A stretch of 16,162 bases of DNA, taken from the UHGV virus genome UHGV-0124814; one strand, written 5' to 3'. A program made the translations under genes and the position numbers. Positions 6,360 through 11,678 of this stretch are shown in pieces; the first letter of the stretch is position 1; every line of letters begins with the position of its first letter. This stretch comes from a virus. The notes under the pieces are model-generated. The model made no database searches, had not been told where the DNA came from, and saw nothing but the letters and a program-made list of their open reading frames with translations.

Positions 6360-6755
6360 TCACATTTCATAGGTAATGACATAAGTCAGATCGGCAGAAC
6401 TCCACAGGCCCGCATCATCGTCGCGCCGGTAGTCATAGCCGCTGGCCACCATACTGGTGATCAAATCTGACAGTGCCGGGACATCGCTCATCACCGGATA
6501 AATCCGGGACTCCATCCACGAATCCAGCTCTGAATCCGGCACCTGAGCAGGCAGGAAAACTTCAATATGCAGCTCCGCCTGCCAGGTATCACTGTCCAGC
6601 TCTTCGCCCGTGTATTCAGCGCCGGTGAGATAAACGGCAATTGCCGGAAAATCCGCCTCATCAAAAACAGCGGGGCGACCATCAAAAAGCGTCGCCCCGG
6701 TGTCATGCTTCTCCAGTGCATCCAGTACGGCTGCACGGAGTTCAGTATGTTTCAT
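6360..6755 (-). CDS. U: Minor tail protein U (tail terminator), apparently intact
   Basis: 131-aa ORF '[36 protein letters not shown]...' matching lambda gpU in sequence and length; start ATG overlaps the upstream stop (ATGA). Confidence 0.9.
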
Positions 6756-7165
6756 CGCTTTATTACCATTCTCAGTTGATGCTGCAGCGCATAGCCCAGC
6801 TCTTTCGGAAGACGTTCACGCCGTATCCGTTCAATATTCTGTTTAAACGCCGTGGTAAGCGGCACCGCCATCGGGATTTTCACCACATCAATGGGGTAAC
6901 GGTTTTTCCCGGCCACACGCTGCATGACATGCCACCGGCCATTTTTCAGTTGCTGAATAAACGCGCCGGGAATACGACGGTTTCCCACCACAAGCACGCT
7001 GCCGCCACCTTTCAGGGATGAACGCTGCCCCTTTTTACGACGTCTGCGGCGGGAAAGGACAACCCGCGCGTTACCCAGCTTGATTACGGGCAAATCCTGC
7101 CAGTTCTGAATGGTACGGATACTCGCGCCGAAAATGTCAGCCAGCTGCTTTTTGTTGACTTCCAT
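6752..7165 (-). pseudogene. In-frame fusion of the first 23 codons of terminase small subunit Nu1 to the C-terminal part of a Z-like tail completion protein
   Basis: 'MEVNKKQLADIFGASIRTIQNWQ' is the lambda Nu1 N-terminus, then sequence switches at ~7096 to a basic tail ('DLPVIKLGNARVVLSRRRRRKKGQ...') that I believe is the gpZ C-terminus; ATG sits at the conserved distance from cos. Confidence 0.7.
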
Positions 7166-7375
7166 TGTTCATTCCACGGACAAAAACAGAGAAAGGAAAC
7201 GACAGAGGCCAAAAAGCCCGTTTTCAGCACCTGTCGTTTCCTTTCTTTTCAGAGGGTATTTTAAATAAAAACATTAAGTTATGACGAAGAAGAACGGAAA
7301 CGCCTTAAACCGGAAAATTTTCATAAATAGCGAAAACCCGCGAGGTCGCCGCCCCGTAACCTGTCGGATCGCCGG
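7166..7375 (-). other. Lambda-type cos packaging site (cosQ side ~7345-7375, cosN 12-nt end at 7333-7344, cosB toward Nu1)
   Basis: Reverse complement of 7333-7344 is GGGCGGCGACCT, flanked by 'GATCCGACAGGTTACG' on one side and 'CGCGGGTTTTCGCTATTTATGAAAATTTTCCGG...' leading to the Nu1 ATG on the other, as in the lambda left end; sequence diverges from lambda beyond ~7395. Confidence 0.8.
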
Positions 7376-7566
7376 AAAGGACCCACCAAAAATGATAATG
7401 ATTATCAAATACGTTTATCACACTGATATTCAGAATCACTACTGAAAGACTCCCTTTGTGGTGCGCGAGGGATGCGCATAAAAAAACCACCAGCAAATGC
7501 CAGTGGCTAAAGATATTCATTGCGAATAACCATCACAAAACAACTTAACTCGTGAGGGTAGAAATT

Positions 7567-7971
7567 TTACTCGAGGCCAAATTTCTTCTTTAAATAGGCC
7601 TTCGTTAACTCCAGCCCAACATCTTTGATTGTACTCAAAGGGGCATCGCTCATTGACTTTAATTTCTCAAAAACCGTAGGTTCATTTAATGCCTGGGCGA
7701 ATTCTTGTCCCTGCGCAGATAGTCGCACGTCGGTACCCATATCTAGCATATGGCCACAATGGCGCATGTAGCCCAGTTTAGTTATGTCATCCGTTATTAG
7801 ATCTTTATTACTGATATAACCTTGCTCAATAAGAAGTAGATAATGAAACATCCCTTCATTCGAGCAGATATCGTACCCCGCATTAGCTAAGTCTTTTGTA
7901 GATATAAAGGGAGTTTTCGCTTTCAAAAATACCTCAAGCATCCCCTTCATGTATTCTAAATTTTTAACCAC
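7567..7971 (-). CDS. Hypothetical protein, 134 aa, AT-rich moron
   Basis: GTG start at 7971 preceded by strong SD (TAAGGAGGTTTTT-GTG); no family recognised. Confidence 0.55.
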   Translation of the reverse strand: MVKNLEYMKGMLEVFLKAKTPFISTKDLANAGYDICSNEGMFHYLLLIEQGYISNKDLITDDITKLGYMRHCGHMLDMGTDVRLSAQGQEFAQALNEPTVFEKLKSMSDAPLSTIKDVGLELTKAYLKKKFGLE

Positions 7972-8106
7972 AAAAACCTCCTTAGGATAATTGGAGGTCT
8001 AGAATACCGTTTGCAAGCACGTTGATAAATCATTATCACAGGCACTCAATGAATGCCTGCTGTAATTGCGTACGGTAATGAACGTAAAAAACCGCCCGAG
8101 GTATAT

Positions 8107-8331
8107 TTAGACATTAGATGGCGCTTTGTCAGTATAGACCCGGTACGCCCTGACAAACATCCCGTTACATTCAGAGTCCGCCTTGATATACGCCAATTCG
8201 TAACCCCGATGCTTTAGCTCTTCACGAGCTCTTTTCTCTTCCTTAGCCATGAAGTTAAGATCTTTAATTTCTGAGTAGGTATATGTTCCCACTATAAAAT
8301 CTCTGCCTGGCCGTCCATTTATCAGTTCCAT
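8107..8331 (-). CDS. Hypothetical protein, 74 aa, AT-rich moron (ORF-track version extends to a TTG at 8397)
   Basis: ATG at 8331 preceded by GGGAGGA SD; protein 'MELINGRPGRDFIVGTYTYSEIKDLNFMAKEEKRAREELKHRGYELAYIKADSECNGMFVRAYRVYTDKAPSNV'; no family recognised. Confidence 0.5.
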   Translation of the reverse strand: MELINGRPGRDFIVGTYTYSEIKDLNFMAKEEKRAREELKHRGYELAYIKADSECNGMFVRAYRVYTDKAPSNV

Positions 8332-8424
8332 GTGTCCTCCCAAAAAGTTGGTAGTCAGAACATACCATGCTAAGCGAGGTGAAAGCACCTTTATCAAGCC
8401 CCCCGCAGATAGACTTTGTAATGG

Positions 8425-8712
8425 CTACTTCTTCAGAAATGATTCGATGAACTCACGCCGGGGATGACGATAGTTCAGAATATCTTCTGGCATCCTCATA
8501 AAGCGGTTGTTGCCGTCTTTGGCAGTAACGAAACAGCAGTGAACTCCGCAGACATCCGTTTTGATCGTGTCGCCATACTCAAAAAGCAACTGCGCCATCT
8601 TCTCTTGCCATTCTTGCGGCATAGCCTCCATGAATACTCTCGGCATCACGCAGAACGACGCATGCGTCAGGCCAAACCACAATTGCAGGTCTTTACGATA
8701 TTCTTCATCCAT
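8425..8712 (-). CDS. Hypothetical Cys-containing protein, 95 aa ('...DVCGVHCCF...'), moron
   Basis: ATG at 8712 with AAGG ~10 nt upstream, lying 19 nt downstream of a terminator-like hairpin; no family recognised. Confidence 0.5.
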   Translation of the reverse strand: MDEEYRKDLQLWFGLTHASFCVMPRVFMEAMPQEWQEKMAQLLFEYGDTIKTDVCGVHCCFVTAKDGNNRFMRMPEDILNYRHPRREFIESFLKK

Positions 8713-8730
8713 CGTCTTTACCTTTGTTGC

Positions 8731-8756
8731 AATAAAAAGCCCCGCGAATGCGAGGC
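8731..8756 (-). terminator. Rho-independent terminator-like hairpin (GCCUCGC-AUUC-GCGGGGC then UUUUUAUU) between Rz/Rz1 and the moron ORFs
   Basis: 7-bp GC-rich stem (one G-U pair), 4-nt loop and T-tract read on the - strand. Confidence 0.5.
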
Positions 8757-8930
8757 TAAATCCTGGTGTTTGTGATGACTGGCTCTTATCTCAACGCAGC
8801 CCCTTACCGCGCGCAAGATGCTCAATATCAAGCATCAGCAATGAGATGTTAAATCTGGATTCACTCCAGAAGTGATCACCACCCTGTCTACAGAGCCAGA
8901 TGTGAAGGATGATGAGTAAAATTATCGCTA

Positions 8931-9398
8931 TCATCGAAGGCATTGCGTCCTGATGTATTCCTGAAGCGTTCTCAGTGCTGTTTGGTCGCGGATAATTCCG
9001 TCCCGGATACCGAGAACGTTTCGTCCAGCAACTGGAGAGAGTTCGACGGTGGCATCATTGCCCATGCCGGAGGCGCTGGAGGTTTCGGCTGAGGATGGCA
9101 CAGGGCATTTTCCTTTGACGAGCACCCTGCCACCATTATCAAGCTTGCGACGAAGAGCATCATTTTCAGCTTTCGCATCAGCTAACTCCTTCGTGTATTT
9201 TGCATCGAGCGCAGCAACATCACGCTGACGCATCTGCATGTCAGTAATTGCCGCGTTCGCCAGCTTCAGTTCTCTGACATTTTTGTCGCGCTGGGCTTTG
9301 TAGGTAATGGCGTTATCACGGTAATGATTCAGCCCCAGACTAAGCACACCACAGGCTACCAGCAGGACAATAATCACCACACACAGAACACGGTTCAT
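8931..9398 (-). CDS. Rz: Rz i-spanin
   Basis: From ATG at 9398 (SD GGTGGTGA): '[17 protein letters not shown]...[60 protein letters not shown]...' closely resembling lambda Rz; the longer track ORF starts at an upstream codon. Confidence 0.85.
8972..9178 (-). CDS. Rz1: Rz1 o-spanin lipoprotein, embedded in Rz in the +1 frame
   Basis: 68-aa ORF '[21 protein letters not shown]...' with lipobox 'VAGC' and proline-rich stretch '[11 protein letters not shown]'; embedded position typical of Rz1. Confidence 0.8.
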
Positions 9399-9497
9399 AT
9401 CACCACCAACGGATTGTCCAGACCAGAACAGCAATGGCCACAATACGAATGGCAAATGCCATTGCCCGAATAAGTTCAGCACTCATCTTTTTAAAGT

Positions 9498-10433
9498 TCA
9501 CGATTTCAGCGCAATGACCAGTTTTGCCAGCCCATACAGCATCGGAGACACAGCAATAGCGTATGTATTTTTCCAGTAATACGTCGTGTCACCACAAATC
9601 CACGGCACATTTACAGCACTGCCACCATGACACTGCGCGTTAAACACAGTGAGGTCAGCACGAAACTGCTTCAGCATGGCTGTAAACAGCGCAGGTTGCT
9701 GTGCGTAGGTGGCGGCGCTCATGTCAAACTCTCCCTGCATCCAGCACACCGCCAGCAACACATTTTTCGGGTTCTTCTGTAATGCCGCTTTGGTGCGTGC
9801 GATCAGGTCCTGATATAACGGTTTACCCACACCCCAGCGTGCCGAATCCTGGCTGGCCCCCGTGTCCGCACTGAATGTCCCCTCCGCGCCCTGGGTGAAT
9901 GCCGAACCACCACGACAGCATGGTACCAGCAGGATCCCCGCGTTATTCGGGATATACGGAAGCAGTTTTTTGGCAATATGTAAGCCCTGGCCGACACAGC
10001 CGTACTGCCCTTTGCTCAGGTCTGCCTTCGGATGATTCAGCGTACTCATATCCTGCACATCATGCAGACAGTGGTCAGCCGGGATGATGTCGTTATACGT
10101 ACAACTCTCTCCACCCGGAGTTACCGTGCTGCGGCGCGCCAGCTGTTTAATGCGCGGATCCGGAGCATCGTAAGAATCCGGTAACGGAAGCCCTTCACCG
10201 TAGGCCATGCCGTTGGACTGTCCGGCAAGCACAACCACGTAGAACCAGTCCGGCTCAGATGAAGGGCCGACCTGTGGATCTCCTTCAATAGCCACCGCCT
10301 GCATCAGTGTGTACGGCGTAATGGCAACCGGTCCGCCATATGGCTGCCAGCCCTCTTTCAGTTTGTGTGTCAGCTTTTCCGCAAGGTCTGACGGCGACGC
10401 CGCCCTGACAACATCATAGTGTTTAAATGCCAT
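9498..10433 (-). CDS. Prophage NanS-p-like sialate 9-O-acetylesterase (N-terminal DUF1737-like segment plus esterase core), probably C-terminally truncated
   Basis: 311-aa ORF with 'VVLAGQSNGMAYGEGLPLPD', 'GILLVPCCRGGSAF', 'CWMQGEFD', 'WICGDTTYYWK' resembling E. coli NanS/YjhS as recalled; strong SD GGGAGGA; ORF ends ~100 nt before Rz. Confidence 0.8.
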   Translation of the reverse strand: MAFKHYDVVRAASPSDLAEKLTHKLKEGWQPYGGPVAITPYTLMQAVAIEGDPQVGPSSEPDWFYVVVLAGQSNGMAYGEGLPLPDSYDAPDPRIKQLARRSTVTPGGESCTYNDIIPADHCLHDVQDMSTLNHPKADLSKGQYGCVGQGLHIAKKLLPYIPNNAGILLVPCCRGGSAFTQGAEGTFSADTGASQDSARWGVGKPLYQDLIARTKAALQKNPKNVLLAVCWMQGEFDMSAATYAQQPALFTAMLKQFRADLTVFNAQCHGGSAVNVPWICGDTTYYWKNTYAIAVSPMLYGLAKLVIALKS

Positions 10434-10626
10434 GAATCCTCCCGGCCGGGATAATATTGTGAGTAAAATGAGGAGCGGGCTGAAGTCCGGAAGTTACAGG
10501 ACAATGGCAGAAGAGAGACGACAGCCCGCAATTCGAAAAAGACCGCGCAGTTGCGCAGAGTGATTACTATGGGGTATTATTCGCCAGCTGAAATATTACT
10601 TCACGTTTTATTGTTTATTCCTTGCC

Positions 10627-10655
10627 GCCCGCGTCTCCCAGCGCGGGCTTTTTTT
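10627..10655 (+). terminator. Rho-independent terminator on + strand (GCCCGCG-TCTCCCA-CGCGGGC then TTTTTTT)
   Basis: Perfect 7-bp GC stem with 7-T run read directly. Confidence 0.4.
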
Positions 10656-10658
10656 GCC

Positions 10659-10686
10659 CACAAGAAAGCCCCTCCGGAGAGGGGCT
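10659..10686 (-). terminator. Terminator-like hairpin on - strand (AGCCCCTC-UCCG-GAGGGGCU then UUUCUUGU), back-to-back with the + strand terminator
   Basis: 8-bp stem with tetraloop and T-rich tail on the - strand, downstream of the tRNA cluster and upstream of the esterase gene. Confidence 0.35.
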
Positions 10687-10923
10687 GGAGAGTGGCGCTA
10701 TGTGCCATTGCATGGTGCCGGGTGCCTCCCGGTGAATTCAGTACCAGCACCTGAATCCGCGATTATCCCATATACCTACTCGCTGATTGCCCCTCCGCAC
10801 AGGGGGATTCACCATGCCAGTTTCTTTTAACAAACTCCCCGCAAACCAGACAACAGTCAACCGTCTGAATTGTGAGACATTTAAAAAAAAAGGCCCGCAA
10901 AAGCGAGCCAGGGAAAATAAGTG

Positions 10924-11000
10924 TGGCGCGTTGTACTGGATTCGAACCAGTGACCGATTGCTTAGAAGGCAATTGCTCTGTCCGGCTGAGCTAACAACGC
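10924..11000 (-). tRNA. tRNA-Arg (anticodon TCT)
   Basis: Reverse complement folds as cloverleaf: acceptor GCGTTGT/ACAACGC, D-arm GCTC..GAGC, anticodon stem ATTGC/GCAAT with loop CTTCTAA, T-arm ACTGG-TTCGAAT-CCAGT, encoded CCA. Confidence 0.85.
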
Positions 11001-11013
11001 ATGATGCAGATAA

Positions 11014-11090
11014 TGGACCGCCATCGGGGACTTGAACCCCGCGCAGCCAGCTTCGAAGGCTGGCGCTCTTTCCTGATGAGCTAATGGCGG
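11014..11090 (-). tRNA. tRNA-Arg (anticodon TCG)
   Basis: Cloverleaf: acceptor CCGCCAT/ATGGCGG, D-arm GCTC..GAGC, anticodon stem CCAGC/GCTGG with loop CTTCGAA, T-arm CGGGG-TTCAAGT-CCCCG, encoded CCA. Confidence 0.8.
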
Positions 11091-11097
11091 TATGTGA

Positions 11098-11173
11098 TGG
11101 TGGCCCTTGCTGGATTTGAACCAGCGACCTGGCGATTATGAGTCGCTCGCTCTCACCACTGAGCTAAAGGGCC
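11098..11173 (-). tRNA. tRNA-Ile2-like (anticodon CAT; could formally be Met)
   Basis: Cloverleaf: acceptor GGCCCTT/AAGGGCC, anticodon loop CTCATAA, T-arm GCTGG-TTCAAAT-CCAGC, CCA; overall very similar to E. coli tRNA-Ile2 as recalled. Confidence 0.8.
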
Positions 11174-11222
11174 GGAAGCAGAATAATAATGGTGCGTAAT
11201 TAATTCTGCAATCTCATCCGTT

Positions 11223-11678
11223 TCAAACGATTAAATCCTGAACTTCCCTGACTGTCTGCTCAAAACGTCCGGTCTCCAGTTCAACGCCAATCGCACGACG
11301 CCCGAGCGCCAGTGCCGCTTTTACCGTTGAACCTGAGCCCATAAAAAAATCTGCAACCTGGTCTCCCGGACGACTGCTCGCGTTGATTATCTGCTGCAAC
11401 ATTTCTGCCGGTTTTTCGCACGGATGTTTCCCTGGATAGTACTGCACCGGTTTATACGTCCACACATCGGTGTACGGCACCTGCACCGTCACACCGAAAT
11501 ACCTCCGCAAATTTTTATATTCACTCAGCAGTTCCATATACTGCCGGTTCAGCTCACTGTATGTGCTGACCAGTTGGTAATGGGACTTTTCCAGTTCTCC
11601 CCGCTGATGTTTCTCTTCTGCCACCCGGGCAAACAGCGACTGTAATTTCAGATAATCGCTTTCGTTCGGTATCCGGCG
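11223..11678 (-). pseudogene. C-terminal fragment of a phage DNA N6-adenine/N4-cytosine methyltransferase; N-terminal half absent
   Basis: Frame open from 11678 with no ATG (first start-like codon is GTG at 11624); contains 'HPCEKP' and C-terminal SAM motif 'FFMGSGST' but no DPPY-type motif. Confidence 0.65.

Follow-up and report, generated by a model that had tools for sequence, protein, structure and literature searches.

Organization of the locus

The DNA analysed is the virus genome UHGV-0124814, a stretch of 16,162 nucleotides referred to here as the window, which spans a prophage remnant from int to a tail-fibre assembly gene. The prophage adjoins potC. Its late genes occupy the minus strand in the order methylase fragment, tRNAs, a 311-aa ORF, a 28-aa ORF, Rz/Rz1, several small ORFs and a Nu1::gpZ fusion, followed by the tail genes gpU, a gpV fragment, a C-terminal fragment of J, lom, a tail fibre gene and its assembly gene. 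The plus strand carries dicB, a gene for an 823-aa YdfE-like protein, xis and int. Three intact relatives were used for comparison: LC567835 (L001), O104:H4 2011C-3493 (L002) and E. coli 266917_2 (L003). The gene order in these relatives is methylase, tRNAs, (morons), a 617-aa esterase, a class II holin, ydfR, lysozyme, two or three small hydrophobic ORFs and Rz/Rz1.

The DNA methylase gene is represented by a 3' fragment (11223..11671, minus strand) that reaches up to a scar at 11670/11671; its coding part at 11223..11624 matches no more of the Pfam profile than positions 113-219 of 221. ARAGORN predicted three tRNA genes (CAT; Arg-TCG; Arg-TCT) at 10924..11173 on the same strand; the CAT tRNA is called tRNA-Met by ARAGORN and tRNA-Ile in the annotation of RefSeq relatives. 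The tRNA cluster lies upstream of the esterase as it does in Stx-type lambdoid phages, judged from the annotation of L002 and L003, and there are no stx genes between the cluster and the esterase start (window 10434-10923). The upstream surroundings of a NanS-p gene, a methylase fragment and three tRNAs, are conserved, and the downstream holin is deleted.

The 311-aa ORF (9498..10433, minus strand) has an ATG start and the C-terminal end ...AIAVSPMLYGLAKLVIALKS. It is open with zero frameshifts and is preceded by a Shine-Dalgarno sequence, GGGAGGA, that was rated good. The ORF consists of NanS-p residues 1-292 and a foreign tail of 19 aa, compared with 617 aa in a full-length NanS-p relative. 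In tblastn, 291 of 292 positions (99.7%) agree with the 617-aa L003 esterase over its residues 1-292, and the tail matches a small ORF described below. Profile searches divide the protein at the same place, with aa 1-295 matching positions 1-304 of 634 in phrog_143 and aa 292-311 matching positions 48-67 of 67 in phrog_1115. A complete DUF1737 domain (PF08410, E 5e-16) covers aa 3-49 (10287..10427, minus strand); in phi24B, DUF1737 is the capsid-decorating part of the esterase gp84 (preprint 10.64898/2026.04.10.717836). It is followed by an SGNH/SASA esterase domain, placed at aa 60-292 (9558..10256, minus strand) by alignment to NanS 3PT5 and Pfam SASA, which is cut short: the Pfam SASA match at aa 66-262 of the ORF is partial and covers profile positions 4-157 of 226. 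The NCBI name of the protein is 'DUF1737 domain-containing protein [Escherichia coli]', and NCBIfam returned zero families for the esterase, short or full-length, or for the spanins.

The tail codons and the stop (9498..9557, minus strand) are the 3' end of a small hydrophobic ORF of 51-60 aa (phrog_1115), which intact relatives carry between endolysin and Rz. Over the tail segment, O104:H4 L002 9001-9061, where CDS WP_042004856.1 ends, matches at 100% identity, and L003 10565-10624, where CDS WP_001151823.1 ends, at 96.7%. The 19 residues are hydrophobic, with a GRAVY of 1.43. Between the esterase stop codon (9498-9500) and the start of Rz there is a gap of 99 nt (9399-9497), which contains just the intact 28-aa hydrophobic ORF (9400..9486, minus strand), identical at 28/28 residues to L002 9073-9159 (WP_032159578.1). 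This ORF is a paralogue of the 60-aa tail-donor ORF (BLASTP E 2e-4), and both match phrog_4493 and phrog_3246. In this phage lineage the interval between endolysin and Rz holds small hydrophobic ORFs in tandem, two or three in number (43, 51-60 and 28 aa), found at 10441-10623 and 10638-10769 in L003, at 8811-9159 in L002 and at 9400-9486 in the window. Their position suggests a lysis-related membrane role.

A deletion junction between nanS-p and Rz

Three-way comparison of the window with its two parental types places a deletion junction at 9557..9558 on the minus strand, with a 2-bp TA microhomology common to both parents. On the left side, window 11671..9557 aligns to L003 5030..7144 at 97.5% identity, and on the right side, window 9558..7261 aligns to L002 9001..11297 at 99.1% identity. 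Within the latter, window 9558..8700 is 100% identical to O104:H4-type DNA that is present in 27 complete genomes, and window 9556..9497 additionally matches L003 10565..10624. The parents of the junction are thus L003 7144 on the left and both L003 10565 and L002 9001 on the right. With a slash at the breakpoint, the left parent reads ...ACATACGCTA/CCCAGT and the right parent ...GGTA/TTGCTGTG; the window reads ...ACATACGCTATTGCTGTG.

Compared with L003, 3,420 bp (~3.4 kb) are missing. The lost content comprises esterase codons 293-617, the holin, a ydfR remnant, a 315-nt ORF, the lysozyme and the first ~40 codons of the 60-aa small ORF. By chance the two reading frames were joined in frame, and translation of the esterase therefore continues into the final 19 codons of the small ORF (IAVSPMLYGLAKLVIALKS) and ends at the natural stop codon of that ORF. 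The first-pass annotation, made from the letters of the window, had described an esterase ending ~100 nt before Rz with a tail that looked junction-derived, and had proposed that a deletion took S, R and the esterase C-terminus. Each of these points is borne out: the distance is exactly 99 nt, the tail comes from the final 19 codons of the small ORF between endolysin and Rz, and a single loss of ~3.4 kb can be mapped against intact relatives. Alignment against full-length homologues, which had been suggested as a check on the truncation, gave relatives of 617 aa, none of which ends at residue 292.

Catalytic capacity of the truncated esterase

Residues 60-379 of the 617-aa relative align to E. 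coli NanS (YjhS, PDB 3PT5) with an E-value of 8.6e-120, and this alignment of our own, together with secondary citations (PMC9063846, PMC10792757), was used to assign catalytic residues. Passages in these two papers give Ser19 and His301 as the catalytically active residues of NanS (PMC9063846) and residues 267-303 as the acid-base block, block V, of 3PT5 (PMC10792757). For NanS-p, the last conserved SGNH block, there called block IV, has been described as RPTH/RSSH/RASH (PMC10462455). NanS Ser19 corresponds to Ser73 in the GQSNG motif of block I, and it is retained in the 311-aa ORF, as are block II (RGGSAF) and block III (MQGEFD). NanS His301 (RSSHFS) corresponds to NanS-p His359 (RPTHFS), which is deleted from the ORF.

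The truncation at residue 292 is equivalent to NanS residue 236 of 326, upstream of both Leu267 and His301. Roughly 90 residues (~28%) of the SGNH type II catalytic fold are gone, including the acid-base block (block V), and with that block the residue giving the acid contact, equivalent to NanS Leu267, is lost as well. The remaining active site is the nucleophile and oxyanion half only. A lectin-like jelly-roll C-terminal domain (DUF6645, PDB 6YP6), which occupies aa 422-613 in full-length relatives, is also deleted, and tblastn found no trace of esterase residues 293-617 anywhere in the window. With the catalytic His, the acid-base block, ~90 residues of the fold and the lectin-like domain all missing, the product is expected to be inactive, and on sequence grounds the 311-aa protein is most likely an inactive pseudogene product. 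It had been proposed earlier that the retained catalytic core could give the host a sialic-acid de-O-acetylation capability; the deletion of His359, the rest of block V and ~90 residues contradicts this.

The expression context was scanned as well. In Stx-type phages nanS-p is thought to be Q-controlled together with the late genes, a view based on the conserved location of the gene and on its response to mitomycin C or norfloxacin, both of which induce it (PMC10462455, PMC8065619). In the window, a simple consensus scan found no sigma-70-like promoter on the coding strand from the tRNAs to the ORF start, and picked up three terminator-like hairpins on the minus strand in the same interval (10909-10892, 10686-10667 and 10558-10543). 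These scans are consistent with poor expression of the 311-aa ORF, for which they offer a weak hint. Two other features of this interval can be recorded: a strong plus-strand terminator hairpin at 10627-10648, directed against the late operon, and a segment at 10667-10887 with 98% identity to a remnant beside iraM in the O104:H4 prophage.

Spanin genes without holin and endolysin

Downstream of the 28-aa ORF, the spanin genes are intact in sequence. Rz, the i-spanin (8931..9398, minus strand, 155 aa), starts with ATG at 9398, matches PF03245 over profile positions 1-125 of 126 (E 1.8e-31), and is identical at 155/155 residues to O104:H4 WP_001390466.1. By these matches it is full-length, with the N-terminal transmembrane segment and the periplasmic domain of an i-spanin. 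Rz1, the o-spanin lipoprotein (8972..9178, minus strand), lies inside Rz in another frame, carries the lipobox VAGC and matches PF06085 (E 3.8e-21); its DNA is identical to that of O104:H4, being part of the segment 9558-8700 that is 100% identical.

Searches for their partner genes covered the whole 16-kb window. With three class II holins of related prophages as tblastn queries the best E-value was 3.0, and with three lysozymes of related prophages it was 0.17. No holin or lysozyme Pfam families were found on any called gene in the loci identical to the window. The absence of holin and endolysin noted in the first reading of the sequence therefore holds across the whole window, and its description of Rz/Rz1 as orphan spanins is upheld, the pair being intact (155/155 for Rz) and its partner genes gone. 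In lambda lysis, spanins work only after holin and endolysin have cleared the peptidoglycan. Because of this dependence, the intact Rz/Rz1 pair should be inert, and the two genes are probably relics in which erosion is yet to come.

Further decay of the prophage

Comparison with L004 4043-8762 places another deletion upstream, 4,720 bp in size. Its junction at 11671/11670 also has a 2-bp TA microhomology, and it removed hok, DUF968, rusA, the Q antiterminator gene and the 5' two-thirds of the methylase gene. Two contigs, L004 and L008, keep the Q-region segment yet already have the esterase/lysis deletion, which makes the latter older than the Q-region deletion.

The Nu1::gpZ fusion ORF (6752..7165, minus strand, 137 aa) matches positions 1-33 of the Phage_Nu1 profile on aa 1-31 and positions 74-190 of the Minor_tail_Z profile on aa 21-137, and is the scar of a loss of the gene block from terminase through head. 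In total, the prophage contains at least four deletion scars, two of them at TA microhomologies. Between 4863 and 6382 on the minus strand, a fragment of gpV, the major tail protein, is directly followed by the C-terminal 346 aa of the tip protein J, and the tail genes starting with G and including most of J seem to have been deleted (a V-to-J scar). Still open are lom, the gene for the Ala/Ser-rich tail fibre (898 aa) and the gene for its assembly protein. A 95-aa ORF at 8425-8712 (minus strand) matches only positions 139-230 of 233 of phrog_3527; the O104:H4 prophage has the same short form, which may be an older truncation common to the lineage.

Occurrence of the allele in other assemblies

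The exact 311-aa protein was found in 16 contigs from four sources (NCBI isolate assemblies, ENA, JGI and Logan), and the host is E. coli where it is named. A 41-mer across the junction is present in all nine contigs compared that encode the protein (9/9). Two loci, one in an NCBI genome assembly and one in an ENA metagenome assembly (L005 and L006), are 100% identical to all 16,162 bases of the window, and a JGI metagenome contig (L007) is 100% identical across the 13,025 bases compared. Since the same junction recurs across assemblies, it is a genuine allele, and an assembly artefact is excluded.

The allele is rare. No junction-spanning copy was found among 5,426 complete E. coli genomes, and the exact junction 35-mer had no matches in GTDB species representatives. 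It had none in the JGI metagenome collection either; JGI contig 3300056349, from another collection, has the junction. In IMG/VR the 35-mer gave one match, on a contig of 4,763 bp, equal in length to L010.

The nucleotide sequence of the ORF is 100% identical in all contigs, including one with diverged flanks (L012), and this identity could mean a recent origin or some constraint. The latter contig (ENA ERZ15609900) has the same junction and an identical 936-nt ORF, with 22 mismatches that all fall in the flanks and a different 3' end of Rz; the pattern could stem from mosaic recombination around the scar or from chimeric assembly. Purifying selection on the ORF was considered from this contig and rejected as uninformative, given that the evidence is one metagenome contig whose pattern is explained by mosaic flanks.

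Origin of the locus and alternative explanations

The best explanation for the locus, to which we assign a probability of about 0.9, is a deletion scar and a pseudogene in an immobile and heavily decayed lambdoid E. coli prophage, formed by microhomology-mediated illegitimate recombination. Recombination at the TA microhomology would have fused nanS-p at codon 292 with the 19 terminal codons of the small ORF, and the same event would have dropped ~3.4 kb with esterase codons 293-617, holin S, the ydfR remnant and endolysin R. Rz/Rz1 would have been left behind, without a holin and endolysin to act with. Decay would then have been stepwise, the lysis-gene deletion coming first and the Q antiterminator region being lost later. 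Loss of the lysis genes may have brought a selective benefit, if any.

Among the alternatives, the one given most weight, though it is still improbable, is that two different lambdoid prophages resident in the host recombined illegitimately and the chromosome between them was lost or inverted. The two flanks do resemble different types: the left is nearest to the L003 type (97.5-98.5% identity, against 83% to the O104:H4 esterase), and the right is 100% identical to the O104:H4 type, with no match in the L003 Rz region. However, lambdoid prophages are routinely mosaic, so that a single mosaic ancestor explains the flanks equally well, and on both sides of the junction the genes have exactly the order and orientation of one late operon. 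Either route would end in a dead esterase and lost lysis genes. That the junction could instead be an assembly or chimera artefact, or the protein a natural short isoform of its family, has a negligible chance of being right. Repeats in lambdoid prophages often misassemble, which is a general possibility only, but here the same junction occurs in nine contigs from NCBI isolates, ENA, JGI and Logan and in one IMG/VR contig. A natural short form is at odds with the length of intact relatives, 617 aa here and 636-657 aa in non-Stx2a Stx phages (PMC10462455), and with a tail that comes from a different gene family (phrog_1115).

Two further explanations grant the ORF a function, and both are very unlikely. 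A truncated esterase that keeps a working catalytic core, from which the host gains sialic-acid de-O-acetylation, could appeal to the retained Ser73 (GQSNG), RGGSAF and MQGEFD, to the open frame with its ribosome-binding site, and to the activity of full-length NanS-p enzymes as esterases (review PMC8065619). It has to contend with the deletion of His359, the Leu267 equivalent and the last ~90 SGNH residues, with the loss of the lectin-like domain, and with an expression context in which the Q antiterminator gene is deleted in the window's version and terminator-like hairpins precede the ORF. The other explanation is a neofunctionalised, non-catalytic fusion of DUF1737, a partial esterase domain and a hydrophobic tail that is under selection, for example as a membrane-associated binder of sialoglycans. 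The in-frame join, the hydrophobicity of the tail (GRAVY 1.43) and the nucleotide identity of the ORF in a contig with 22 flank differences speak for such a protein; an in-frame outcome, however, is expected by chance in one third of events, the 19-aa tail is just part of a membrane segment and has a Lys, and identical copies would be expected just as much from a recent origin or from mosaic recombination of the flanks. The allele is also rare (0/5,426 complete E. coli genomes), and the prophage around the ORF is decaying throughout. We hold it just as improbable that the ORF yields a DUF1737-SGNH fragment, catalytically dead or weakly active, which is anchored by its hydrophobic C-terminus and has been maintained for some benefit to the host, for instance by binding O-acetylated sialoglycans at the membrane, and that Rz/Rz1 might likewise serve a non-lytic envelope function.

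Comparison with known systems

Read as a deletion scar with a pseudogene, the locus is a case of ordinary prophage decay; it is nothing new in kind, and its sequence is already in public databases. Its significance is mainly one of annotation. By its sequence the ORF should be called a nanS-p pseudogene or fusion remnant, as it has neither a complete catalytic domain nor the C-terminal lectin domain, and the 311-aa protein should be left out of tallies of functional sialate esterase copies among E. coli nanS-p alleles. Rz/Rz1 have the predicted features of spanins and lie outside any functional lysis cassette.

Full-length NanS-p proteins (933W L0105/z1466; phi24B vb_24B_21/gp84; the O104:H4 alleles) have the same DUF1737 and the same first ~230 SGNH/SASA residues, and are encoded at the same late-region site downstream of a tRNA cluster. 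The window ORF differs from them in having no residues 293-617, which hold the block V His, the end of the fold, the linker and the lectin-like domain, and in its additional foreign tail of 19 aa. Chromosomal NanS (YjhS, 3PT5) has a homologous catalytic domain with GQSN, RGGSAF and MQGEFD in common; the window protein, in contrast, ends at the equivalent of NanS residue 236 of 326 and has an additional DUF1737 domain.

When compared with the lambdoid S-R-Rz/Rz1 cassette, Rz/Rz1 are identical to those of an O104:H4 prophage with a complete cassette, whereas holin and endolysin are absent from the entire prophage remnant. The rzpR/rzoR genes of the K-12 Rac prophage are likewise an orphan spanin remnant in a cryptic prophage that has lost holin and endolysin, and their Rz is a pseudogene. 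The window differs from Rac in that its Rz is intact and its breakpoints are defined to the base.

A parallel in nanS-p itself is a pseudogene in ETEC6 (L014 4873-5058, NZ_CP041627.1), an independent internal truncation of the gene in a related prophage that has the same Rz allele. It differs from the window in its breakpoint, with ~62 aa left that are annotated as a DUF1737 pseudogene, and in that holin and lysozyme are kept. In the ETEC6 prophage an IS66 element also splits the terminase large subunit gene. The independent truncation in ETEC6 indicates that decay of nanS-p is recurrent, and the locus described here provides a base-resolved case of stepwise prophage decay.
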